DNA of 57,781 nt, taken from IMG/VR virus record IMGVR_UViG_3300032326_000646, positions 1-57,781 of that record. One strand, written 5' to 3'. A model generated the notes under the pieces. It saw only the letters and a program-made list of their open reading frames with translations. It was not told where the DNA came from and made no database searches. Source of the stretch: a virus. Taxonomy: Duplodnaviria; Caudoviricetes. How positions within the stretch are numbered: position 1 is the first letter of the stretch; each line of letters begins with the position of its first letter. Both the position numbers and the translations under genes were made by a program. Below are positions 16,286-45,568 of this stretch, piece by piece.

Positions 16286-17863
16286 ATGGCAACAAGAATG
16301 CAACAGCGCAGAGGAACTGCAGCACAATGGACGGCTGCAAACCCAGTATTGGCAGCAGGTGAAATTGGTTTTGAAACAGATACAAATAAGTTTAAGATGG
16401 GTAATGGTTCCTCAGCATGGTCTGCATTGACATACTTTGCTAACGCAGCAGAACTAGCAGCCATTATTGATGGCGCACCATTAGCGCTTGATACTCTTAA
16501 TGAGTTAGCAGCAGCACTTGGTGACGACCCAAACTTCCTAACATCATTAGCAACAAATGCAAGAGTTGATCAAATAGTCCTTAATGGGCAATCAGTAACT
16601 ACTCAAGCAATTACTAAGGCAGAGTCAGAACTTTTAAGCCATGCACAAGACGAAACAAATATTCATGGAATTGCAAACACAGCAGATCTTGCAACAAAGA
16701 CATATGCAGAAGGCGCTGCAGATGCTGCAGTAGATGCTGCAATAGCAGCACTAACAAAGTCTTCAGTAGGTCTATCAAACGTAGACGATACACAAGATGC
16801 TTTTAAGCCAGTTTCAGCAGCACAGGCTTCCGCAATTGCTACAGCAAAAACTGAGGCTATTACAGCAGCAGGCCAAGCAGCAGATACTAAGATTTCAGAT
16901 CATAATACTGATGAAACAAATGTACATGGTATTCCAGATACATCTGTTCTCGTAACACAAACAGAACTTACAAATGCTATTGCAGGTGTAACAGTGGATC
17001 AGTCAGAACTTGCTGGAACAGGTCTTCTATGGGATGGTGTTAATGAGCAATTTACTATTGACACAACAGTTGCAACTAAGACATATGCAGATAGCGCTGT
17101 TTCAACTCACAATGATGAAACCACATCTGTTCACGGTATTTCAGATACAGCACAACTAGCATATAAGAATGCAGCAAATCAAACATTTACAGGAAATCTA
17201 GAAGTTGACGGAAACCTTGTTGTTGATGGAGACATCACAGTTAATGGTGGAAGTTTTAACGCATCAGCAACATCTATCACAATCGAAGATAATATGGTTC
17301 AACTTGCTCACCAGAATGCAGCAAACACTGTAGACCTTGGTCTTGTGGTTGCATATACAGAAGGCGTAGTTGGAAAGCATTCGGGTATCGTAAGAGACGT
17401 ATCTGATGATAAGTGGAAGTTGTTTAAGGGTGTAACAACAGAACCTTCAACAACTGTAGACTTTACTCAGGGATCATTTGATGATCTTAAGGTTGCAGCA
17501 CTTGAGGCAACAACAGTAACCCCATCTTCTGGTATCGTATTCTCAGACGGTACACAGACAAAGTTGGGAGTTCCATCTGTAACAACATTTGCAACAGCAA
17601 TCTCATCATCTGCAACATTAGCAGCAGGAGAAGCAGACAAGTTTGTTCCACTAACTGGAGCAGTTACAATCACACTTCCTGCAACAGGATACTCAACTGG
17701 ACAGTCAATTGACTTCTATCAGGAATCAGGCACAGGAGCACAATTTGCCTCAACAAATAGCGTTGTCGGTACACCAGGTTTGAAGTTTAGAACTACAAAC
17801 TCAGTAGTAACAGCAATGAAGACTTCAAGTGGATGGTTGGTCTTCGGAGACCTATCAGCATAA
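16286..17863 (+). CDS. Tail fibre with Mtd-N-like N-terminal domain and C-terminal adaptor domain
   Basis: QQRRGTAAQWTAANPVLAAGEIGFETDTNKFKMGNG; HxxDETxxHGIxxT repeats; ends WLVFGDLSA. Confidence 0.8.
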   Translation: MATRMQQRRGTAAQWTAANPVLAAGEIGFETDTNKFKMGNGSSAWSALTYFANAAELAAIIDGAPLALDTLNELAAALGDDPNFLTSLATNARVDQIVLNGQSVTTQAITKAESELLSHAQDETNIHGIANTADLATKTYAEGAADAAVDAAIAALTKSSVGLSNVDDTQDAFKPVSAAQASAIATAKTEAITAAGQAADTKISDHNTDETNVHGIPDTSVLVTQTELTNAIAGVTVDQSELAGTGLLWDGVNEQFTIDTTVATKTYADSAVSTHNDETTSVHGISDTAQLAYKNAANQTFTGNLEVDGNLVVDGDITVNGGSFNASATSITIEDNMVQLAHQNAANTVDLGLVVAYTEGVVGKHSGIVRDVSDDKWKLFKGVTTEPSTTVDFTQGSFDDLKVAALEATTVTPSSGIVFSDGTQTKLGVPSVTTFATAISSSATLAAGEADKFVPLTGAVTITLPATGYSTGQSIDFYQESGTGAQFASTNSVVGTPGLKFRTTNSVVTAMKTSSGWLVFGDLSA

Positions 17864-20859: not shown

Positions 20860-22893
20860 ATGTCAGATTTTTTTAGTTTTAAACTTCCAGAGGATTTTGT
20901 AGAAAAGTATAAAAACCAAGAAAGCCCATTTGGGTTTAAGGATGCAGCAGAAAATTCACTTGGAGAAATTACTTTTATACGTACTTATTCTCGAATGAAG
21001 GAAGATGGGACTAAAGAAAGATGGCATGAGGTTTGTCGTCGTGTAATCGAGGGTATGTATTCAGTACAAAAGAATCATGCTAAAGAAAACCGTTTGCCAT
21101 GGAATGACTACAAGGCTCAGAAGTCAGCACAAGAAGCATTCCAGAGAATGTTTGAATTAAAGTGGACACCACCAGGTCGAGGTATGTGGGCATTTGGAAC
21201 TCCTATGACTATGGAAAAAAAGAACTCAGCAGCACTACAAAACTGTGCAATGGTATCTACAAAAGATCTTGACAAGAATGATCCAGGAGCCTTGTTTGCT
21301 TGGGTTATGGATGCATTAATGCTTGGCATTGGTGTAGGGTTTGATACAGTGGGACAGGATAAGAATTTCTCAATCTATACCCCAACAGAACCAGAACAGG
21401 TATTTGAAATCCCAGACACTCGTGAAGGATGGGTAGAGTCAGTACGATTACTTATTAACTCCTACCTAAGACCAAACCAAAGTATTCAGAAGTTTAACTA
21501 TGATTTGATTAGACCTCTTGGAGCACCCATTAAGGGCTTTGGAGGGGTTGCATCAGGACCTGCACCTCTTATCAAGTTGCATGATCAGATAGACCGTGTA
21601 ATTGGCTCTAGAGGGGGTGAAACACTAGATTCTCGTGCTATCGTAGACCTAGTAAACCTTATTGGAACCTGTGTGGTATCAGGCAATGTTCGCAGATCGG
21701 CAACGCTTGCTTTGGGCACTGCAGGAGATGACACATTCATGAATCTAAAGAATTCAGAAATGTTTCCAGAACGCAATTCATTTGATCCAGAAAACCCAGG
21801 CTGGGCTTGGATGTCTAATAATTCTATTTCAGCAGAAGTAGGAACAAAGTACGAAGACTATGTGGATTTAATTACAGAAAATGGAGAGCCAGGTTTTATT
21901 TGGCTTGATGTTGCTCGTAATTATGGAAGACTAAAAGATGCGCCAGACGGTAAGGATTATCGTGTGATGGGATTTAACCCATGTGCGGAGCAGCCATTGG
22001 AATCATATGAACTATGTACACTTGTAGAAGTGCACTTGAATCGTCATGAGTCTAAGGAAGACTTCCTGCGTACCTTGAAGTTTGCATACCTTTATGGAAA
22101 GACTGTAACACTTGTTCCAACTCACTGGCCACAAACAAACGGTATCATGCAGCGCAACCGTCGTATTGGTACATCTCTTACTGGTATTGCGTCATTTGCA
22201 GATCAAAAGGGTTTGCCTATTGTTCGTGAGTGGATGGATGAAGGATACAATAAAATTCGTCACTATGACCACCAGTATTCAGAATGGCTTTGTGTTCGTG
22301 AATCAATTCGTGTAACAACAGTTAAGCCATCAGGATCAGTTTCAATACTTTCTGGTGCAACTCCTGGAGTTCACTGGGGTCCTGGAGGAAACTTCTTCCT
22401 TCGTGCAGTTAGATTTGGAAATACAGATCCAATGATGCACTTATTTAAAGCAGCAGGGTATACAATTGAAGATGACGTAGTATCAGCAAATACATCAGTA
22501 GTTTACTTCCCAATCAAGTCAGGCCATCCAAGATCTGAAAAAGATGTAACACTATTTGAAAAGATTGCACTTGCTGCAACTGCTCAAAAGTATTGGTCTG
22601 ATAATGGTGTTTCTGTAACACTTTCATTTGATAAGGAAACTGAGTCAAAGCATGTTGTTCCAGCACTACACATGTACGAAGGACAACTAAAGGCAGTATC
22701 ATTCCTACCAATGGGAAACACTGTTTACCCACAACAGCCATACACTCAGATTACTGAAGAAGAATATGAGTCGTATGTTGGTAAATTGAAGCACATTGAT
22801 TTTGCTGCTATTTATGATGGAGCAGAAAATCTTGAGGCTCAAGGAGAGATGTACTGCACTACAGACTACTGCGAAATTAAAGTAAACAAGTAG
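20860..22893 (+). CDS. nrdJ: Class II (adenosylcobalamin-dependent) ribonucleotide reductase
   Basis: QNCA, NPCAEQ, TTVKPSGSVS, C-terminal CTTDYC; no beta subunit nearby. Confidence 0.93.
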   Translation: MSDFFSFKLPEDFVEKYKNQESPFGFKDAAENSLGEITFIRTYSRMKEDGTKERWHEVCRRVIEGMYSVQKNHAKENRLPWNDYKAQKSAQEAFQRMFELKWTPPGRGMWAFGTPMTMEKKNSAALQNCAMVSTKDLDKNDPGALFAWVMDALMLGIGVGFDTVGQDKNFSIYTPTEPEQVFEIPDTREGWVESVRLLINSYLRPNQSIQKFNYDLIRPLGAPIKGFGGVASGPAPLIKLHDQIDRVIGSRGGETLDSRAIVDLVNLIGTCVVSGNVRRSATLALGTAGDDTFMNLKNSEMFPERNSFDPENPGWAWMSNNSISAEVGTKYEDYVDLITENGEPGFIWLDVARNYGRLKDAPDGKDYRVMGFNPCAEQPLESYELCTLVEVHLNRHESKEDFLRTLKFAYLYGKTVTLVPTHWPQTNGIMQRNRRIGTSLTGIASFADQKGLPIVREWMDEGYNKIRHYDHQYSEWLCVRESIRVTTVKPSGSVSILSGATPGVHWGPGGNFFLRAVRFGNTDPMMHLFKAAGYTIEDDVVSANTSVVYFPIKSGHPRSEKDVTLFEKIALAATAQKYWSDNGVSVTLSFDKETESKHVVPALHMYEGQLKAVSFLPMGNTVYPQQPYTQITEEEYESYVGKLKHIDFAAIYDGAENLEAQGEMYCTTDYCEIKVNK

Positions 22894-35643: not shown

Positions 35644-35680
35644 GAGAGGCTCAATCCTTCGGGGTTGGGCCTTTCTGTTT
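35644..35680 (+). terminator. Intrinsic terminator with UUCG loop
   Basis: GAGAGGCTCAATCC-TTCG-GGGTTGGGCCTTTC then TGTTT. Confidence 0.8.
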
Positions 35681-35694
35681 GGTATACTTATATA

Positions 35695-36372
35695 ATGGCA
35701 ACAAAAATATATCATACTAAAAAAATATCATTAATAGATGAAAGCACTATTACTGCTGCCCCCTTAAAAATTAAATATCTTAGAGAGTTTCTAGAAACTT
35801 TTGAAGAAATTAAAGATGCAAAGACAGATGATGAGTCAGTTGCTGTTTTGGCAAAATGTGCTCTTATTGCTATGCAGCAGTATTGTCCATCGATAACAAC
35901 GATAGAAGAGTTAGAGGATAGTTTAGATTTACCCACAGTATACGAAATAATAGATGTAGCAGCGGGAATTAAAATTAATGAAAAGTCAGAAGATACGGTA
36001 AAAGCCCAAGCAGTAGAAAGTGGATCAACATGGGAAACCCTAGATTTGGCAAAGTTGGAGTCTGAGGTTTTCCTTCTTGGTATTTGGAAAGACTATGAAG
36101 AGTTAGAGTCTTCTTTATCTATGCAAGAATTAACAGCAACCCTACAAATAAAAAGAGAACTAGATTATTCAGACAAGAAATTTTCTGCTGCAATGCAAGG
36201 TGTAGATTTAGATAAAAATTCTGGTAGTGGAAACGAATGGGAAGACATGAAGGCTAGAGTGTTTAGCAAGGGTGCAACCACTAATGGAAATGATATTCTG
36301 GCTTTGCAAGGCATGAATGCTGAGAAGGCTGGTTTCGGCATAGGCATGGGACTTGATTATGAAACTTATTAA
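35695..36372 (+). CDS. Tail assembly chaperone, long (GT-like) form
   Basis: N-terminal ~100 aa paralogous to 36431; extra C-terminal domain; leaderless ATG 35695. Confidence 0.7.
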   Translation: MATKIYHTKKISLIDESTITAAPLKIKYLREFLETFEEIKDAKTDDESVAVLAKCALIAMQQYCPSITTIEELEDSLDLPTVYEIIDVAAGIKINEKSEDTVKAQAVESGSTWETLDLAKLESEVFLLGIWKDYEELESSLSMQELTATLQIKRELDYSDKKFSAAMQGVDLDKNSGSGNEWEDMKARVFSKGATTNGNDILALQGMNAEKAGFGIGMGLDYETY

Positions 36373-36430: not shown

Positions 36431-36757
36431 ATGGCAACTGCCACAACAGAAGAAAAGACCGTAACACTGATCGATGGAACAAAGATCAAGGTCAGACCAC
36501 TTAAAATCTCGCTACTTCGTCCATTTATGAAGAAGTTTGAAGATATCGCAAAGGTCGCAGAAGATAACGAAAAGTCTATGGATTTGCTTATGGACTGTGT
36601 ACAAATTGCAATGCAACAATACAAGCCAGAGTTGGCAGAAGACAAGGAAGCCCTAGAAGAAAACCTAGACCTTCCAACAGTATACAAGATTGTCGAAGAG
36701 GCATCAGGGATTAAACTTTCTGACGCATCACTACTTGGCAACCTTGCAAATAACTAA
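36431..36757 (+). CDS. Tail assembly chaperone, short (G-like) form
   Basis: Lies between tail tube and tape measure; AAGGAGG SD. Confidence 0.75.
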   Translation: MATATTEEKTVTLIDGTKIKVRPLKISLLRPFMKKFEDIAKVAEDNEKSMDLLMDCVQIAMQQYKPELAEDKEALEENLDLPTVYKIVEEASGIKLSDASLLGNLANN

Positions 36758-36775: not shown

Positions 36776-39700
36776 ATGGCTGATGTTCAATCCAATATTC
36801 ATGTAAATATTGATACGTCTGATGCTTTAGCAAGTCTAAAACTTCTGCAACGTCAAATATCAGCCTTCCATACACAAATGGCAAAGTCTGGTACCGCAGC
36901 AGCAGCGGTATCTGCAAATCAAGCACAAAACTTGATGAACGCAATAAATGCTACTGGACAATTCCAAGCATCTATGCAAAAGGTAACAACAAGCACAGAG
37001 CATTTTACTGATGCGTTAGAACGTAACAAATTAACATCCAGAGAATATTTTAGATATACTGGAGCAGCCACAAAGACCTTCGGAAGACTATTTAAGTCTG
37101 AGTTCGAGACAATCAACAAGGTTGCACGAGAGCGTGTAAAAGATATTCAGACACAGTATATCAAACTGGGTCGTGGTGCTAATGGTGCACTAGAAGCAAT
37201 TGCTGTAAGACCTCTTACCCTTGACATGAAAAATTTGGGTACTCAAACAGCCATCGCAGCACAAAGACAACAACTATTAAATCAACTATTAAAGCAAGGA
37301 TCAACAAACCTTCTAAACTTTGGTAAGAATACTCAGTGGGCTGGTCGTCAGTTGATGGTTGGTTTTACAATTCCATTGGCAATGCTTGGAGCCCAGGCTT
37401 CAAAAACATTTATGCAGATGGAAGAGCAAGCAATTAGATTTAAGCGTGTGTATGGAGAACTCTTTACCACTCAAGAAGAAACAGACGCAATGGTCAAGCA
37501 GATTCAGACTCTTGCAAAAGAATACACTAAGTACGGTGTAGCGGTAGAAGAAACAATGAAAATGGCTGCAGATGCAGCAGCAATGGGTAAGATGGGTGCA
37601 GAATTAACTGCACAAGTTGCACAGGCTACTAGACTTGCAGTTCTTGGTGGTGTTGAACAAGCCCAGGCCTTAGAAACAACCATATCAGTAACAAATGCAT
37701 TTGGTGTTGCAACAGAAGATTTAGCAAAAAAGATTGACTTCCTCAACGCAGTTGAAAACCAGACAGTTGTATCTATTGAAGATTTAACAGTTGCAATTCC
37801 AAAGGCTGGCCCAGTTGTGCAACAACTTGGTGGAGATGTAGAAGATTTAGCATTCTTCCTTACAGCAATGAAAGAAGGTGGAATCAATGCATCAGAAGGT
37901 GCTAACGCACTCAAGTCTGGTCTTGCATCTTTAATTAACCCATCTGAAAAAGCATCAAAATTCTTAGGAAATCTTGGAGTTAATATCCGTGGAATTGTTG
38001 AAGCAAACAAGGGAGATATTAAAGCAACAGTTGTTGGATTTTCAAAGGCATTAGACACACTAGATCCACTTAACCGTGCTCGTGCTATTGAGCAGTTATT
38101 TGGAAAGTTCCAGTTCTCAAGATTATCTACACTATTTCAAAACGTAGCAGCAGAAGGCACACAAGCACAAAGAGTTTTAGGACTAACAAAAGCAACTACA
38201 GAAGAACTTGCAATTTTGTCACAACGAGAATTAGACAAGATAGAAAACACCACTACCTATAAGTTTAAAAAGTCAATGGAAAATCTTAAGGTTGCTCTTG
38301 CCCCAGTTGGAGAGCAGTTCTTAAAGGCTCTTACTCCTATTGTTGAATTTGTTGGAAAGATACTTGATAAGTTTAATAATCTTGGCGATGGAACTAAAAA
38401 GTTTATAACTATATTTACTGTTGCAGTTGCAGGTATTGGTCCAGTTCTTTTGATGACATTTGGTTTGATAGCAAATGCTGCTGCTAATATAATTAAACTA
38501 TTTGCAAGTATGAAGTCTATGTACAATAGAACTGGAAATGCAAGTACAGTTTTAGGAGAACAAACAAATTATTTAACTAAGGAGCAGATAGAAGCATCAG
38601 CCGTTGCAGCATCACTTGATCAAGTTCATCAAAAACTTAGACAAACATTTACATCTGAAACAACTGCAGTCAACTCTCTTGCAGCAGCATACAGAAGAGC
38701 AATCGCAGCCCAAGCAGGATTTACTGGTCCAGTTAGGGGCGCTGGAAAAGCCCCTGGTTTAAAGAAGTATTCAACAGGAACTACAGAAGTTCCAGGAAGT
38801 GGAAGCAGAGATACAGTACCAACAATGCTAACTCCTGGAGAAGCCGTTATCCCAGCACGGGCAGCACAAGATCCAGCAAATAGGCCAATGATTGCACAGT
38901 TAGTCGCAGGGAAAAAGGTTCAAGGATTTAACACAGGAACAACTGGAGTAACACAAAGTGGAGAAACACAAAAAACACACGTAGGTGGAAAGAGTGAGCA
39001 AAAACTAATTTCCGACATCCTCAAGAATAATCCTTTTATGGGAGATGATCAAAAAGCCAAATTAAGAGCGCTTGAGGCAATTTTAAAATCACAAGGCCTT
39101 CCACCAACAACTGCAACACTACATAAGTTAATGTTTACATTCCCAGCATCAATGAACATGTCAATGAGTGCTGGTGTTGGAATTCCTGCTCAAAACTTTA
39201 TAGATGCTTGGGATAAGTTAGGACCAAATAAGTGGGAAGCATCTAAGATCGCTGGCCCAGTTGCGGATCCTTTTGATAGAGCAATGATAGATATGATCAA
39301 AAAAGATTTGGCAGATAAAAAAATAACACATGTCAATGATGATTATGTTAAAGATATATTTACAAAAAGAATCCCAGCAGAACGACCAGATATTGCAAAA
39401 ACTGCTGGGTATAGTCAAGCAGAAAAACTATACAACACCTCTACACAATTTTTGCTTGGAAAGGGACTAGGAAATACTCCAGAAGAAAGCACAAGAATTT
39501 TACAAGATGCAGTAAAGAAAGGCGCTATAAAAAGTTTTACTCTTGAGTCAAGAGAAGGAACTGGAAAAACAAACAAGGGTAAAATTGTAACTGGATCAGC
39601 CACAGTAACCTTAAATGATGGAACAGTTGTAAATATGAATCGTCTCGGTTCTGGTCATAGAGTAAACATCAGCCAAGACGAAAAAAGCCAAGAAAGAAGT

Positions 39701-42700
39701 AATGCAGCAGCAGCAAGAGCAAGAGCAAAAGCAATAGCAAAAAGAGCAGCAGATGTACCAAGTCAATCAAAAATGACAGTTCTAGAACGTGTTGCTGCAG
39801 CAGCAGAAAAAACAGTATCTGGAAAACTTCCTGCCACCGACTTTGGAAAACAACTTGCCTCTTCATCTGGTTATAGTTTTAAAGAAGCCTCTTTCATGGG
39901 CGGTCTTTATGAAAAGTCTAATGGCAAAAAAGTATTTGTAAAGCCAATGATGAGTGAACTAGACGCTATAGCAGAAAAAAGAGCAACAGACTTTGCTAGA
40001 AAAGTTCAAGGACTTGATACGCCAGAGCAAAACATTAAAACAATGATTGATCCTTCAGATCCAGAAGGTAAAAGAAAGATAATTGTTTTGGAATCTCCCT
40101 TTAATGAAAGGTTTAGTACAAAAAATATTCCAAAGACATTTACTCAGGCAGAATATTTTACACAGTTAGTCGCAGCAAATCTTCGTGGAGATAAAGATCT
40201 TAAGGCAGGAAATCTCGGTGGAAATGTCATGACAGACGGAGGCACCATGGGTGTCTTTGATAAAGCCTCTGGAGATAGAAGCCTTTCAAAAAAGATGCCA
40301 TCGCTAGAGCAAATGGCAGAAGAAAACCTAAAGGGGCTTCCAGAAAAAAGCAAAGGAAACCCACAAAATTCCCCTAACTGGTTTGCAAATGCAACTAAAG
40401 ATATTGCTTTAAATTTAAAACCAGATCAATACGATAAGGCTATGAAAGATGAAATCAAAAGACAGATTGAACTTATGGTTCCTTATGTAAAAGGCATGCC
40501 TAACAATGATCCGCTAAAACCTTACTACACCAAGATGTTAGCAAGACTTAGAGCAGGACTAAAGGTTGACTGGAAGAGACTACATCAAAAGCATAGTAGT
40601 ATTCTGGTAAAACCTGATGAAGTTCTTGAAGATAAAGATGGTAACATCAAGAAAATACCTACAGAGCCAAATAACGGCAAATTTAAATCTGACTCAGGCA
40701 TAAAAGATACAAGAATTGCTTCAAAGGAAGTTGAGTCATCAGTCCGTCAAAGACCTAGACTGCGTGGAAAATCAGATGCTCCAAAAGCAAGTATTGATAT
40801 TTCAGAACAAGAACTTGCTCGCACAGCACCAAGGGGTATAAAAAGAATAGTAGATCCAGTAGGAGCAGTAGTTGCTGGAGCAAAGACTTCTATAGCAGAA
40901 GCAAAGTCAGTTGGAAGTACAATTGGAACAACATTGTCTCAATCTGCAGCAGCAGCCTCAAGAACAATGCTGTACGGTACTGGACCAGTAGATGCTGATG
41001 CAAAGTCTGTACGTAGACAACTAGAAAAGCGACAAAGAGCGCAAGCAAAAACACAAGCAAAGGCAGCAGCATCAAGAACTGCTCTTTATGGCACGGGGCC
41101 TGTAGATGCAGATGCAAAGTCTATGAGACGTAATGCAGAAAAAGAAATGAAGAGAAGTAAGTTAGCAGAAAAGGTAGCCTACCAACAATCAATTATTGAT
41201 CAAAGAGCAGCAGAAGAAGCAAAGAAAAGAACTCCTACAGGGAGAATCAAAACATTTGTAGAAAATAGACAAGCAAAAAGACAAGCAAGAATAGATGCAG
41301 GCAAGCGCCCAGGAATGGGAATGACTGGAGCAGCAGGTGTTGCAGCAGGTGCAGCAATGCTTGGCTCAATGGCACCAGGAAAAGTTGGAGAGATTTCACA
41401 AAAAGTAATGATGCCACTTATGGGTCTTTCCATGGTGCTTCCAATGCTAAAGAGCCCTATGGGGGCTGTTGCAGTTGGCCTTGCAGCAACCGTTGGAGCA
41501 TTTGTTGCTTTAAGAATGGCTTTTGATAAAGCAGCAAATAAGGTTCTAGAGGAAAATGAAAAGTTTAGAGGATCCACTTCTGCAATAAATTCAATTGCAA
41601 AGTTTAGTGGCAAAGTAACAGCATCAGAGCAGATGGACTTAAGAAGAAAAAATTCCTTTTCAATGCTTGGGCCAGCAAGAGGTAAAACAACTTATGGAGA
41701 AGCATTTATTCAGACAGCAGAAGGAAAAGATTTAACAAAGCGAATTTCAGAACAAAATGCTGCAGGTAAGGGTGGAGAGGCAGCAAAAGATTTAAGTGGA
41801 CAGTTAACTGCATCAATAATGTCTGGTGCAATTGATATGAGTCAAGCAAAAAGTTTAGCCATGAATGCTGCTAGACAGGCTGGAGATATGTCAATAGGTA
41901 TTAGAGTAATTGCTCAAATGGAATCACTCCTTGGTCCAAATGGAGAAAAACTTGATCAAGAACCATTAAAGGTTAGAATGAATATGATTTCTGAAAATTC
42001 TAAGAATATGCAAGGCAGTCTTAAAAATATTCAAAATGCTAATCCAATAACAAAACTTGCTGGACAAAAGACAATGCAAAAAGTTGGCATTGGTGCCACT
42101 GCAGCAGCAGGAGCAACTGTCGGCGCAGTCCTTGGTTCAATTGTTCCTGGGGTTGGAAATGTTGTTGGAGCAATTATTGGTGGTGGCATCGGCGCAGCAG
42201 CGGGAGCAATTGGTGGATACTTTGCATCGCAAAAGTTTGTAAAGCAAGCAGGAGCACTTGGAGCAGCCTATGCAGTAGATGCTAAGATTGCAATGGAACA
42301 AAACAAGCAAATGCTAGACTCATTTGATATGTACTATCAAAAGAAAATTGAAGAATTAAGGCTACAAGGAAAAATAAATGAAGCCAATGAAATGCAAACA
42401 AAATATATTAAAGAGAGAGATGAGTTAACCGCTGCTCAAGGTCAATTGCAAGGCAATATTGTTTCACAATACAATTCTGCTGGAGGTCTTCAAGAATCAA
42501 TGATGAGCGGTATGAAGAAGGCCGCAACCGCAAGATACAAGAATGATCCAAATCAATTAGCATATCTTGATGTTGTTAATCAACAAGCAGGGGATCTTAG
42601 AAAAGATGGACTTATTAGTAGTGGTCAAGAATTTTTAATTCAGGCAAAGATGGCAAGTGGAGATATTCCTCCAGCAGTGTTTAGATCACTTCTAGGTTTG

Positions 42701-45568
42701 GCAGCAGACAACAAAGATATTGCTCCAAAGATGATGGAAATTATCACAAAGTTTAGTGGGGCGACTTCTGAATCTATTGGAGTTGCAGCACAGAATATTC
42801 TTGGATCAGATGGAGTTATTAACAAAACAGTTCAGACTGAATTTATTACAAAAGTTGAAGCATTTGAAAAAGACTCAGATGCACTTGATTTTACAAAGAA
42901 TATGATTAAACTAAATAATTCTAATTCAGTAATTCCGTCAGATGTTCTAGTTAGTTATTATACAAAGAATAGCGAAGCATACGAAAGTCTAAATAAAGCA
43001 TTGGATGCAATTGAAAGCAAAAAAGATTTAACTATTCCTTTTATATATGAAATATTACCAGAGTTAAAAGAGTCTGAAGCATTTGATGAAGAATACTTTA
43101 AGACATTAACCGAAGACCAGCAAAAAGTATACACCGAAACAATTACAAAATTGATAAAAATGACTACGCCAGAAATTCTTGAAACTGAAGATTTTAAGGC
43201 TTGGCGTAAAGAAAATCCTGATGTCAAGGGAAGCAAATCTTTTATAGTTCAAAAGTATATTGAGGCTCAAGGAAATAAGGCCGTAACCGATGGCGTTGCT
43301 GTAGGCACAAATGCTCCAACAGGAACAACTTCAACTGGTGGTGGAAGTAAGGTGCAGTCTTCGCCTCTGGATGATTTAGTTAAAAAACTTAGGGATGTAA
43401 GAATGAACCAGATTAAGGTCACGGAGGGCTGGAGTGCCTCACGGAAGGCTTTAGATGGGCTGTTTGGTGGCAAGAAGACGATAGATGTATTTAGTGGTAT
43501 AGAGAACGATATAAGAAAACTTGGCGGTAGCCAAGACTTTATTGAACTCATAGTAGGCATGGATCCAAAAGAATACGAGAAGCAAAAGAACTCCCTGTTC
43601 TTATTTGACAATAAGAAAAATATTATTGGTCTTAAGAAAGATGCAAAGAATATCCAGGAAGCAATGAACTCTATTGCCATGGGTGATTGGAACTCTAGTA
43701 TGGAAGAAGAATCTAAGGCTCTTGATAACCAAGCAAAAGCATTTTCTAGAGTATCAGGTCTTGGAGTTCCAGTAGCAAATGCCTATGAACTTATAACAGA
43801 TAAAACAATTGCTTCAGCAATTGCCAATGGGGTAAATGACAAAACTCTAAAAACATTAATTGATAGATATAAGGGTTTGACAGCAGCACAAGAAAAGTCC
43901 GCAGCAATTCAAGCAACAAAAACAGATATTGCCCAATTTAAAAAAGACAGAGTTCAAGAAGATAGAATTAGAAGTAAGTATAGTTCAGAAAATGCTTTTG
44001 TAATTGGTTCTGATGAAAACCTTAAAACAATGGAAGGTGCTATCGCTACTCAGCAATCAAAGGTAAATCGTTTAATTGCTAAGGGTGCAGATAGTGGACA
44101 AATTAAGGCTGCACAAAAAGAACTAAATAGTATGATAACTGATTTTGATGAAAGATTAAATCAACTAAAAAGCACTATTGGATCAATGCAGGATATGTTT
44201 CATGAAGGTTTTGGAAATGCAATGGAGTCATTTGATGTTCAAGAGACTGCTCTTCAAATAAAGTTTAATTTAGATACTAAAGAAAGCACTAAGATAATTG
44301 AAGAAGCACAAAACACCATTGCTGGAATTCAGTATAAGATTGATGACAAAGAAGCATCTCTTAGGGCTATTGAAGATCAAGAGCAGAAGATTAATGAAAA
44401 GTATGATGAAAGAATCAAAGCCTTAGATGAAGTAGAAAAGGCTAATGCTTCTATTGCTAACCAGCAACGAGGCCAACTCACACTAGCGGAAGCCTTAACA
44501 TCTGGAGACATCGCAGCAGCAGCCAGAGCAGCACAAGATATGAGAGCACAACAGGCTGCAGATGCTGTAACAAGACAAAAGGATGCGGTAGAACAGTCTA
44601 GACAGTACGAACTTAACTCAGTAAAAGCATATGATCCTGTTACAAAATCTTATAGAACTAGAAAAGAAATTGAAACAGATATTAAAAATCTTCAAAATGA
44701 AATTTTTGATCTAGAAGAAAAGAAAATAGAGCCAGCACAAGAGTTTGTTCGATTAAGACAAATACAACTAGATAAAGATATCGAAGGAATTACTGTTCTT
44801 GGAAAAACAAGAGATGCCTGGGAAGCAATTAAAAATCAAGTAGATCTTGCTATGACAAATAGCGCAAAGTTTATAGAGTCAATGAAACTTGCATTAGGTA
44901 TTCAGGCAAACTTGACTCAGGGATATAAGAATGAAAAAACAAGTGGCAACAATCCAATAGTAGGAGCAACATCAGGTTCCACAACAACTGCAGAAGCAGA
45001 TGCAGCAGCAGCCAAGGCCAATGCGATGGCTGATTTTGCTTTAGCAAATACAGGAGCGCAAGTAAACACAGCAGTTGCTAATGCAGTTAAAGCAGGACTA
45101 ACTCCAACAGTGATTGCAAATGCAATGGTACCAGCCTTAATTAATTCTGGAATGGATGCAGCAGCAGCAGCATCATCTGCTAGATATACTGGTCAAGGAT
45201 TGCAGTGGCAAGCACAGCAAAAGGCAGCAGCAGCAAAGTGGAGACCAGGTGGGCTATCTATGGGTGGCATTGTTCCTAAACACTTTGCAGCAGGTGGTTT
45301 TGCAAAGGGCACTGATACAGTTCCAGCAATGCTAACTCCAGGAGAGTTTGTTATGAGCAAGTACGCAGTAGACTCATACGGAGTAGAAAATCTTAAGAAG
45401 ATTAATAATGGCGATACACCTAGCGGAGCAGTGTATAATAATACATATACATTAACTGTTAATGCAAAAACAGATGCTAATCCAAATGAAATTGCACAAG
45501 CAGTAATGTCAACAATTAAGCAAGTAGACGACAGAAGAATTAGGGGGATTGGAATAAATGGTAGATAA
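36776..45568 (+). CDS. Tape measure protein with inserted kinase-like domain
   Basis: 2930 aa; TP901-type TMP core (AENQTVVSIEDL...EGANALKS), Ala/Gly-rich hydrophobic segments, coiled coils. Confidence 0.9.
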   Translation: MADVQSNIHVNIDTSDALASLKLLQRQISAFHTQMAKSGTAAAAVSANQAQNLMNAINATGQFQASMQKVTTSTEHFTDALERNKLTSREYFRYTGAATKTFGRLFKSEFETINKVARERVKDIQTQYIKLGRGANGALEAIAVRPLTLDMKNLGTQTAIAAQRQQLLNQLLKQGSTNLLNFGKNTQWAGRQLMVGFTIPLAMLGAQASKTFMQMEEQAIRFKRVYGELFTTQEETDAMVKQIQTLAKEYTKYGVAVEETMKMAADAAAMGKMGAELTAQVAQATRLAVLGGVEQAQALETTISVTNAFGVATEDLAKKIDFLNAVENQTVVSIEDLTVAIPKAGPVVQQLGGDVEDLAFFLTAMKEGGINASEGANALKSGLASLINPSEKASKFLGNLGVNIRGIVEANKGDIKATVVGFSKALDTLDPLNRARAIEQLFGKFQFSRLSTLFQNVAAEGTQAQRVLGLTKATTEELAILSQRELDKIENTTTYKFKKSMENLKVALAPVGEQFLKALTPIVEFVGKILDKFNNLGDGTKKFITIFTVAVAGIGPVLLMTFGLIANAAANIIKLFASMKSMYNRTGNASTVLGEQTNYLTKEQIEASAVAASLDQVHQKLRQTFTSETTAVNSLAAAYRRAIAAQAGFTGPVRGAGKAPGLKKYSTGTTEVPGSGSRDTVPTMLTPGEAVIPARAAQDPANRPMIAQLVAGKKVQGFNTGTTGVTQSGETQKTHVGGKSEQKLISDILKNNPFMGDDQKAKLRALEAILKSQGLPPTTATLHKLMFTFPASMNMSMSAGVGIPAQNFIDAWDKLGPNKWEASKIAGPVADPFDRAMIDMIKKDLADKKITHVNDDYVKDIFTKRIPAERPDIAKTAGYSQAEKLYNTSTQFLLGKGLGNTPEESTRILQDAVKKGAIKSFTLESREGTGKTNKGKIVTGSATVTLNDGTVVNMNRLGSGHRVNISQDEKSQERSNAAAARARAKAIAKRAADVPSQSKMTVLERVAAAAEKTVSGKLPATDFGKQLASSSGYSFKEASFMGGLYEKSNGKKVFVKPMMSELDAIAEKRATDFARKVQGLDTPEQNIKTMIDPSDPEGKRKIIVLESPFNERFSTKNIPKTFTQAEYFTQLVAANLRGDKDLKAGNLGGNVMTDGGTMGVFDKASGDRSLSKKMPSLEQMAEENLKGLPEKSKGNPQNSPNWFANATKDIALNLKPDQYDKAMKDEIKRQIELMVPYVKGMPNNDPLKPYYTKMLARLRAGLKVDWKRLHQKHSSILVKPDEVLEDKDGNIKKIPTEPNNGKFKSDSGIKDTRIASKEVESSVRQRPRLRGKSDAPKASIDISEQELARTAPRGIKRIVDPVGAVVAGAKTSIAEAKSVGSTIGTTLSQSAAAASRTMLYGTGPVDADAKSVRRQLEKRQRAQAKTQAKAAASRTALYGTGPVDADAKSMRRNAEKEMKRSKLAEKVAYQQSIIDQRAAEEAKKRTPTGRIKTFVENRQAKRQARIDAGKRPGMGMTGAAGVAAGAAMLGSMAPGKVGEISQKVMMPLMGLSMVLPMLKSPMGAVAVGLAATVGAFVALRMAFDKAANKVLEENEKFRGSTSAINSIAKFSGKVTASEQMDLRRKNSFSMLGPARGKTTYGEAFIQTAEGKDLTKRISEQNAAGKGGEAAKDLSGQLTASIMSGAIDMSQAKSLAMNAARQAGDMSIGIRVIAQMESLLGPNGEKLDQEPLKVRMNMISENSKNMQGSLKNIQNANPITKLAGQKTMQKVGIGATAAAGATVGAVLGSIVPGVGNVVGAIIGGGIGAAAGAIGGYFASQKFVKQAGALGAAYAVDAKIAMEQNKQMLDSFDMYYQKKIEELRLQGKINEANEMQTKYIKERDELTAAQGQLQGNIVSQYNSAGGLQESMMSGMKKAATARYKNDPNQLAYLDVVNQQAGDLRKDGLISSGQEFLIQAKMASGDIPPAVFRSLLGLAADNKDIAPKMMEIITKFSGATSESIGVAAQNILGSDGVINKTVQTEFITKVEAFEKDSDALDFTKNMIKLNNSNSVIPSDVLVSYYTKNSEAYESLNKALDAIESKKDLTIPFIYEILPELKESEAFDEEYFKTLTEDQQKVYTETITKLIKMTTPEILETEDFKAWRKENPDVKGSKSFIVQKYIEAQGNKAVTDGVAVGTNAPTGTTSTGGGSKVQSSPLDDLVKKLRDVRMNQIKVTEGWSASRKALDGLFGGKKTIDVFSGIENDIRKLGGSQDFIELIVGMDPKEYEKQKNSLFLFDNKKNIIGLKKDAKNIQEAMNSIAMGDWNSSMEEESKALDNQAKAFSRVSGLGVPVANAYELITDKTIASAIANGVNDKTLKTLIDRYKGLTAAQEKSAAIQATKTDIAQFKKDRVQEDRIRSKYSSENAFVIGSDENLKTMEGAIATQQSKVNRLIAKGADSGQIKAAQKELNSMITDFDERLNQLKSTIGSMQDMFHEGFGNAMESFDVQETALQIKFNLDTKESTKIIEEAQNTIAGIQYKIDDKEASLRAIEDQEQKINEKYDERIKALDEVEKANASIANQQRGQLTLAEALTSGDIAAAARAAQDMRAQQAADAVTRQKDAVEQSRQYELNSVKAYDPVTKSYRTRKEIETDIKNLQNEIFDLEEKKIEPAQEFVRLRQIQLDKDIEGITVLGKTRDAWEAIKNQVDLAMTNSAKFIESMKLALGIQANLTQGYKNEKTSGNNPIVGATSGSTTTAEADAAAAKANAMADFALANTGAQVNTAVANAVKAGLTPTVIANAMVPALINSGMDAAAAASSARYTGQGLQWQAQQKAAAAKWRPGGLSMGGIVPKHFAAGGFAKGTDTVPAMLTPGEFVMSKYAVDSYGVENLKKINNGDTPSGAVYNNTYTLTVNAKTDANPNEIAQAVMSTIKQVDDRRIRGIGINGR

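Follow-up and report, generated by a model that had tools for sequence, protein, structure and literature searches.

Why should the tail of a phage contain what looks like a protein kinase? This question is raised by a tape measure protein encoded in IMGVR_UViG_3300032326_000646 (Caudoviricetes), an IMG/VR virus record that CheckV places at ~53% completeness and whose full 57,781 bases (the window) we analyzed. An initial annotation, made from the letters of the window, had described a HipA/PI3K-like kinase domain embedded in this protein. Here we define that domain, trace it through related viruses, and weigh what it may do. Positions of all features are collected in Table 1.

A conserved domain with kinase-type residues inside a tape measure protein

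The host protein of the domain belongs to the TP901-type tail tape measure proteins, as judged by both hidden Markov model (HMM) matches and gene position. PF10145 matches residues 246–443 of the open reading frame (ORF; E 3.7e-24, 86.1 bits against a cut-off of 33.2) and TIGR01760 (tape_meas_TP901) matches residues 200–556 (E 9.9e-32, 110.3 bits against 28.8). Ten PHROG tape-measure families also match, mostly over approximately residues 8–670, with phrog_167 extending to 964. By gene order, the ORF occupies the canonical tape-measure position within a siphophage-type structural module. Among 264 relatives, the N-terminal module is covered by 198–219.

Further along the chain, residues 1051–1250 are covered by 249–255 of the same relatives. 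When the query starts at residue 1020, most relatives align from query position 2 to ~260, giving domain limits of ~1020–1280. The nucleotide span proposed at first, 39880–40600, equals residues ~1035–1275 and thus captured the domain while falling slightly short of its conserved extent. All four motifs named in the initial annotation are present in the tape measure protein, and the strings it had picked proved to be the invariant ones across 265 aligned domain instances.

We counted conservation over these 265 instances, which reach down to ~29% identity, taking as denominators the instances with a residue at the position concerned. The Lys, Glu, D-x4-N loop, and D-x-G site required of the protein-kinase-like superfamily are all present and conserved: K1056 in 249/249, E1067 in 253/253, D1141 in 259/260, N1146 in 259/259, and D1154 in 259/259. 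G1043 of the Gly-rich hairpin is retained in 247 of 248. Position 1139 is Asp in 252 of 260 instances and Asn in the remaining 8, and the family has further invariants of its own in Q1130 (259/259) and R1137 (252/260). Because they are near-invariant across the aligned instances and in many relatives, these motifs exceed what chance would produce. The D-x4-N spacing leads us to infer that D1141 is the catalytic base; in a profile alignment described below, it is D1139, not D1141, that pairs with the Asp of HipA_2.

Structure prediction places these residues in a kinase-like framework

AlphaFold2 (AF2), given a 51-sequence alignment, returned a confident model of the domain (predicted local distance difference test [pLDDT] 89.0, predicted template modeling score [pTM] 0.84). 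The model is a mixed alpha/beta globular domain, unlike the usual helical parts of tape measure proteins, in agreement with the earlier description of a non-helical insert. In domain numbering, the N-lobe comprises strands at 24–27 and 33–38, a helix at 42–57, and strands at 67–72 and 82–89. A helix at 105–118 then leads into the R-G-D-K-D-L-K-A-G-N loop, followed by a short hairpin, D-G-G, and a helical C-lobe at 158–255. In the model, the order of these elements along the chain matches the kinase template. Together, AF2 and Foldseek indicate the bilobal fold of the superfamily, with a beta-rich N-lobe, helix C, and a helical C-lobe.

When the model was searched against the PDB with Foldseek, all 47 of the 47 matches listed were kinases, the best by E-value being AAK1 (E 1.1e-3). 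Helicobacter CtkA (3akk_C) had the top TM-score and probability (query-normalized TM [TMq] 0.36, probability 0.92), and the list also held actin-fragmin kinase (1cja; TMq 0.28, probability 0.84) and 3dnu, labeled "MDT protein" (probability 0.82), which we take to be HipA. As a control, the model of the preceding segment of the same protein (region A, residues 701–1019) gave a mixed list without kinases and a best E of 0.37. Against BFVD, the domain had 8 matches at E <= 1e-3, the best at 7e-5 with probability 1.00. The BFVD matches were large phage proteins of 490–1340 amino acids (aa), among which ADP-ribosyltransferase appeared as the label on two rows and HK97 portal on one; ranks 8 (E 8.5e-4) and 9 (E 1.2e-3) were labeled as PI3K/PI4K catalytic domains.

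The alignment-free ESM-Atlas comparison named the same families. Its top named cluster was LepB_N (0.93–0.95, with 174–178 of 256 features shared), HipA_2 accounted for 17 of the 30 named matches, and further clusters were Act-Frag_cataly and one in which 19% of members carry PF00454 (PI3_PI4_kinase). Guided by the predicted structure, we read the segment as a compact, divergent protein-kinase-like domain, nearest to the branch that holds HipA/CtkA, PI3K/PI4K, actin-fragmin kinase, and LepB_N.

The domain is a fixed module of giant tape measure proteins

We searched for relatives with a 311-aa query (residues 1020–1330). In 90% clusters, 200 proteins matched at E <= 1e-3; among the 120 matches listed, lengths ran from 1685 to 4461 aa, PF10145 was present on 109, and the usual source name was TP901 tape measure protein. 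In 50% representatives, 156 clusters matched at E <= 1e-3 and 147 at E <= 1e-10. A relative of the domain was likewise encoded by 328 of 379 pattern-matched IMG/VR stretches. Cultured phages gave no match when the domain was compared by tblastn with 50,697 records, and among 185,579 species genomes we found a single relative, on a 9.9-kb contig of a metagenome-assembled genome, which establishes neither a host nor a prophage. The domain was found only within giant tape measure proteins of uncultured phages, its place being fixed in the 200 proteins and the 328 IMG/VR loci. We regard it as a fixed module of one clade of siphophage tape measure proteins, ~3000 aa long and all from uncultured phages.

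Directly upstream lies a segment that behaves differently. Residues 751–1000 are covered by only 72–82 of the 264 relatives, whereas the flanking blocks, residues 1–700 and 1020–1280, are constant, and three relatives hold an unrelated insert in this slot. Among long relatives, the kinase-like domain starts at residue 700–799 in 58 of 225 and at 1000–1099 in 98 of 225, in a sample biased toward close relatives. The initial annotation had raised the prospect of relatives swapping effectors at the domain's own place; it is the slot just upstream that varies, and the kinase-like domain stays constant.

In our protein the slot is filled by region A, for which AF2 gave a pLDDT of 73.6 and a pTM of 0.58, with core positions 40–190 at 75–96. 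No Pfam or NCBIfam family matched region A above cut-off, and the Foldseek search against the PDB described above yielded no structural relative. Region A is strongly conserved within its subclade, with 67 invariant columns in 13 sequences.

One relative, P0035, has a cytidylyltransferase-like domain in the slot (PF01467, residues 731–856, E 1.5e-5, 25.7 bits against a cut-off of 21) and the kinase-like domain after it, at residues 1243–1532. An enzyme-like domain at this place fits a tape measure protein that carries cargo. By analogy, the slot beside the domain suggests a modular platform akin to the polyvalent proteins, and to contractile injection systems with their tape-measure-related effectors. 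Precomputed Pfam assignments among the 120 relatives listed include PF01467 on 4 and LysM (PF01476) on 16.

A proposed delivered phosphotransferase and the evidence for and against it

What might such a domain do? The initial annotation had proposed an injected effector kinase that would serve host takeover or anti-defense. We see an even chance that the domain is an active ATP-dependent phosphotransferase that leaves the tail with the tape measure protein and works early in infection, at the host membrane or inside it, a reading that draws on conserved residues and the predicted fold. A catalytically active domain would bind ATP-Mg, with the K1056–E1067 pair anchoring the phosphates and N1146 together with D1154 binding metal. 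Joined covalently to the tape measure protein, the domain would exit the tail along with that protein at infection. It lies between the hydrophobic segments 541–577 and 1560–1584, and in a newly infected cell it may act at the cytoplasmic membrane, or inside it, ahead of phage gene expression. Its substrate could be a protein Ser/Thr, as for HipA, CtkA, and actin-fragmin kinase, or a membrane lipid, as for LepB_N and PI4K; both are possible.

The second of these substrates leads to an alternative that we consider unlikely, namely that a kinase fold performs other chemistry or uses a non-protein substrate. Candidates would be a kinase of membrane lipids, small molecules, or cell-wall precursors, or else an enzyme that, like some pseudokinase-like effectors, transfers nucleotidyl or glutamyl groups. 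This account draws on the ESM features, which place LepB_N (Legionella LepB, Rickettsia Sca4) above the HipA clusters, the LepB N-terminal domain being a lipid kinase. It also fits the membrane-type segments on either side of the domain, the extra invariants R1137, D1139, and Q1130 outside the standard kinase set, and the Streptomyces phages found as relatives of the capsid and tape measure proteins, phosphatidylinositol being present in actinobacterial membranes. On the other hand, the closest solved folds (CtkA, actin-fragmin kinase, and HipA) are protein kinases.

Several results weigh against a delivered, active kinase. At E <= 10, Pfam found no kinase family on the domain or on 51 alignment members, returning only scattered chance families, each on at most 4 of the 51. 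PHROGs and NCBIfam had no match on the domain, and searches of the PDB by sequence and by profile produced no kinase-domain match; what they returned were coiled coils, designed proteins, and PKC C2 domains. PF18640, PF00454, PF20613, and PF09192 were also run over the whole record at E <= 10, and none matched. In the Foldseek search, no PDB match reached E <= 1e-3, query-normalized TM-scores were 0.17–0.36, and root-mean-square deviations were mostly 11–19 A, so that global superposition is poor. Profile comparison by hhalign gave probabilities of ~1%. Within the domain, D1154 follows N1146 at a spacing of only 8 residues, where the spacing between the catalytic-loop Asn and the DxG Asp is 13 in PKA and PI3K. 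Finally, a folded domain of ~30 kDa, in three copies, should not fit the lumen of a siphophage tail; with the lumen too narrow, the domain must travel unfolded or sit elsewhere.

We examined the relationship to HipA with a comparison set from Actinomycetota, in which 39 of 301 genomes had a HipA_2 domain and 25 domains were used. The hhalign score was 20.4 (P 0.052, probability 1%), which is statistically weak; the reversed control had P 0.56, and among 100 column shuffles only 2 scored as high as the actual alignment. The alignment was colinear, pairing K with K, AE with AE, GL..P with GL..P, the catalytic loops with each other, and DGG with DHG.

Membership in named families was not supported: neither HipA model (PF07804 HipA_C or PF20613 HipA_2) recognized the domain, nor did those for LepB_N (PF18640), to which the likeness lies in language-model features only, and for actin-fragmin kinase (PF09192). 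The PI3K/PI4K family was likewise not indicated, by the PF00454 model or by its G-D-R-H-x-x-N loop, since the domain reads R-G-D-K-D-L-K-A-G-N with no Arg-His after the Asp. Because no sequence model recognizes the domain, we would class it as a new family within the protein-kinase-like superfamily, belonging to neither HipA nor PI3K. The HipA/PI3K-like label of the initial annotation therefore holds at the level of the superfamily, on AF2, Foldseek, ESM features, and motifs, and fails for membership in HipA or PI3K/PI4K; the structural comparison it had called for produced a confident model and a list made up of kinases, with weak structural E-values.

The weak scores invite two skeptical explanations. 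In one, there is no kinase fold, AF2 or the weak Foldseek matches mislead, and the motifs coincide by accident in another alpha/beta fold. The low TM-scores, the absence of a PDB match at E <= 1e-3, the hhalign probability, and the lack of any HMM match speak for this explanation. We nonetheless regard it as the most improbable of those considered here: the listed PDB matches were all kinases while the region A control gave none, BFVD returned a probability of 1.00, the alignment-free method named the same families, and the order of secondary-structure elements together with the invariant residues fits the kinase template. In the other, which we rate as very unlikely, the domain descends from a kinase and is catalytically dead, with a structural role only; it might plug, act as a spacer, or form a knob that docks at the membrane. 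Tape measure proteins accept many inserts, and the unusually short N-to-D spacing would suit a dead module. Pseudokinases typically lose one or more catalytic residues, whereas here five residues of catalytic type are essentially invariant down to ~29% identity.

Where and when an active enzyme would work is a separate matter. We think it fairly unlikely, although worth stating, that the domain is an active kinase of the producer cell whose presence in the virion is incidental. A late, abundant tape measure protein in an ATP-rich cytoplasm would then phosphorylate host or phage proteins, which could serve, for example, to block superinfection, to counter defense, or to control tail assembly. 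ATP is certain in the producer cell, whereas access to the cytoplasm after ejection is hypothetical, and a protein of the haloarchaeal virus HSTV-2 with a PI3_PI4_kinase-like loop (see below) is likewise encoded in a structural module. Benler et al. (2021; PMC8008677) reason in the same manner for a HipA-like kinase in the late module of "Gratiaviridae."

Against a producer-cell role, fixed covalent embedding in an ejected protein would be hard to explain if delivery were irrelevant. A free gene would be simpler, yet we found no convincing free-standing form: a single-sequence search yielded 1 fragment among 1775 candidates, and a profile search yielded 17 short matches among 8000 scored candidates, none a convincing stand-alone gene. 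The short profile matches were mostly on contigs <3 kb, with two on contigs of ~7.5 kb and one on a 15-kb contig; two of the short matches, P0276 and P0277, cover just the C-terminal tail of the domain.

Other features of the protein and its genomic neighborhood

Table 1. Features of the window. Positions are nucleotides of the window; residues are those of the tape measure protein
Feature	Position	Strand	Residues	Basis or remark
Cytochrome P450 ORF, 433 aa	379–1680	+		PF00067
Protein of 525 aa with Mtd_N (major tropism determinant N-terminal) domain	16286–17863	+		E 4.7e-15
Class II (B12-dependent) ribonucleotide reductase	20860–22893	+		PF17975 (E 6.1e-32), PF21995
ORF of 1248 aa	22919–26665	+		Directly upstream of portal region
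Portal	27073			Structural module, upstream of tape-measure ORF
Prohead protease	29309			Structural module
Major capsid protein	30643			Structural module
Ig-domain major-tail-like protein	34978			Structural module, before chaperone-like genes
Two chaperone-like genes	35665..36372 and 36431..36757	+		Both match phrog_10504 (E 4.9e-23, 7.1e-21)
Tape measure protein ORF (P0001)	36776..45568	+	2930 aa	Stop-free open frame
N-terminal TP901-type tape-measure module	36776..38875	+	1–700	PF10145, TIGR01760, PHROG matches
Hydrophobic segment within N-terminal module	38396–38506	+	541–577	Hydropathy
P-x-M-L-T-P-G-E, first copy, within DTVPTMLTPGEAV	38819..38842	+	682–689	Ends N-terminal module
Variable slot, region A	38876..39832	+	701–1019	Globular insert without assigned fold
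Protein-kinase-like domain core (~260 aa)	39833..40615	+	1020–1280	AF2, Foldseek, ESM features, relatives
Gly-rich hairpin and Lys strand, GGLYEKSNGKKVFVKP (G1043, K1056)	39899–39946	+	1042–1057	Strands at domain positions 24–27, 33–38
Helix-C-like AEKRA (E1067)	39971–39985	+	1066–1070	Helix at domain positions 42–57
Catalytic-loop-like RGDKDLKAGNL (R1137, D1139, D1141, N1146)	40184–40216	+	1137–1147	After helix 105–118
DxG motif D1154-G-G1156 in MTDGG	40229–40243	+	1152–1156	Short hairpin precedes
Peptide repeat AASRTxLYGTGPVDADAKSxRR, ~38 residues, two copies	40970–41122	+	~1392–1455	Basic linker
Hydrophobic membrane-type segment	41453..41527	+	1560–1584	Kyte-Doolittle 19-residue window, max 1.93; downstream of kinase-like domain
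Gly-zipper-like hydrophobic region	42089..42217	+	1772–1814	Hydropathy
P-x-M-L-T-P-G-E, second copy	45323–45346	+	2850–2857	~80 residues before C-terminus
Minor tail protein gene, 1440 aa	46163			Downstream of tape-measure ORF

Outside the kinase-like domain, the tape measure protein contains two short repeated elements. Both copies of the P-x-M-L-T-P-G-E motif sit inside DTVPxMLTPGE[A/F]V, and a loose form of the motif is present at least twice in 123 of 206 relatives longer than 2500 aa. The doubled motif may be the relic of an ancestral protein terminus, or it may serve for docking or processing. The AASRTxLYGTGPVDADAKSxRR repeat lies in the basic linker that leads from the kinase-like domain to the hydrophobic segments, and 49 of 239 long relatives have a looser version. 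At the DNA level the peptide repeat escapes TRF, which detected no long repeat anywhere in the ORF. Because it is rich in Ser, Thr, and Tyr, this repeat is conceivable as an autophosphorylation site, which is speculation on our part. At residues 1747–1845, around the Gly-zipper-like region, PF13488 (Gly-zipper_Omp) and PF21724 (DUF6861) match weakly, below cut-off.

PHROGs assigns no function to phrog_10504; from the position of the two genes ahead of the tape-measure ORF, we infer that they encode tail assembly chaperones. The capsid protein is closest to Streptomyces phages of Stanwilliamsviridae (41–43% identity, 127 of 226 matching records), as is the N-terminal tape-measure module (29–31% identity, 127 of 274 matching records), which makes an actinobacterial host a reasonable guess from sequence likeness. 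The G+C content of the window is only ~37%, and no tRNA genes were found in it. Elsewhere in the window, the cytochrome P450 ORF matches PF00067 at E 3.9e-48 (164.8 bits against a cut-off of 22.8); P450 genes are rare among phages. The 1248-aa ORF upstream of the portal region had no Pfam match at E <= 1e-3.

Comparison with known systems

HipA, HipA_2, and CtkA (PF07804, PF20613; 3dnu, 3akk) are among the best solved-structure matches of the domain. HipA_2 and the domain share, in colinear order by hhalign, the Lys strand, the AE...AR..GL..P helix, the catalytic loop, and DxG/DHG. They differ in the loop, which is DRTxRNxN in HipA_2 and DKDLKAGN here, and Pfam found no HipA N-terminal domains in the tape measure protein. 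HipA is part of a toxin-antitoxin pair, whereas the domain is embedded in a virion protein. LepB_N (PF18640) offers a different parallel, as both it and the domain are carried by proteins delivered to another cell, delivery of the domain being our proposal.

The PI3K/PI4K label found at ranks 8 and 9 of the BFVD list is carried by uncharacterized proteins of phages and archaeal viruses, and the domain differs from that family in having no DRH triplet. The BFVD match L7TJZ0 is probably HSTV2_16, judging from equal length and the Pfam match. HSTV2_16 is a 490-aa hypothetical protein of the haloarchaeal myovirus Halovirus HSTV-2 (KC117376.1; L140, 10647–12119), encoded between the capsid and tail-sheath genes. 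It matches PF00454 over the catalytic loop only (E 1.5e-5, 25.5 bits, below the cut-off of 27.1), and hhalign of our domain against it was weak (P 0.095). With its PI3_PI4_kinase-like loop and its place in a structural module, HSTV2_16 is a hint that other tailed viruses, too, encode kinase-like proteins among their structural genes.

The nearest conceptual precedent may be the polyvalent proteins. Iyer et al. (2017; PMC5512222) describe predicted kinases in large multidomain proteins thought to enter the recipient along with DNA, and these share with the tape measure protein the concept of a divergent kinase-superfamily domain beside swappable enzymatic modules, the module in the slot of P0035 having a nucleotidyltransferase fold. 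According to that paper, the kinases have lost their C-terminal subdomain entirely and are found mostly in elements of Verrucomicrobia-Chlamydia and Bacteroidetes. Our model, compared with them by description only, retains the helical C-lobe at 158–255, which argues against membership in the polyvalent-protein kinases. Tape measure proteins are mentioned 0 times in PMC5512222.

Tape measure proteins with wall hydrolases likewise hold an enzyme-like globular domain. Wall-hydrolase domains act on peptidoglycan outside the membrane and without ATP, whereas the domain described here, set within the N-terminal third of its protein, carries residues of kinase type. For comparison, the tape measure protein of Streptomyces phage BoomerJR (2093 aa) has no kinase-like domain; toward its end come a lysozyme-like region and an HLHFE motif of the M23 type, the latter identified by eye. 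Tape-measure-related effectors are also described for actinobacterial contractile injection systems (PMC13277306). The characterized phage protein kinases number two in the count of Benler et al. (2021; PMC8008677). Neither of the two is a virion component. Searches of PubMed Central open-access papers and bioRxiv brought up no published description of a tape measure protein that contains a kinase.

Discussion

The family is large, with 328 IMG/VR loci and 156 clusters at 50% identity. Current annotation of these proteins says only "tape measure" because no Pfam, PHROG, or NCBIfam model covers the domain and because it is absent from cultured phages. Beyond the delivered phosphotransferase that we favor, a wider reading is possible but doubtful: the ~3000-aa tape measure proteins as a group may be effector-delivery vehicles, in which both a fixed atypical kinase and a swappable enzyme slot pass down the tail and do their work before phage expression, with the kinase at the cytoplasmic face of the membrane beside the protein's own membrane segments. 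In its boldest version, the kinase would phosphorylate a membrane lipid, for example actinobacterial phosphatidylinositol, or a membrane protein, and this phosphorylation would open or stabilize a channel for DNA entry or disarm an envelope-linked defense.

A delivered kinase would pose a physical question, namely how a globular domain of 30 kDa passes through the tail lumen. If delivery proves true, the cargo of tape measure proteins would extend from wall hydrolases to ATP-dependent enzymes, and the tail may bring in an enzyme together with the DNA. Manipulation of the host before transcription begins would then have a new route, through the one protein that all siphophages thread into the envelope of the host.

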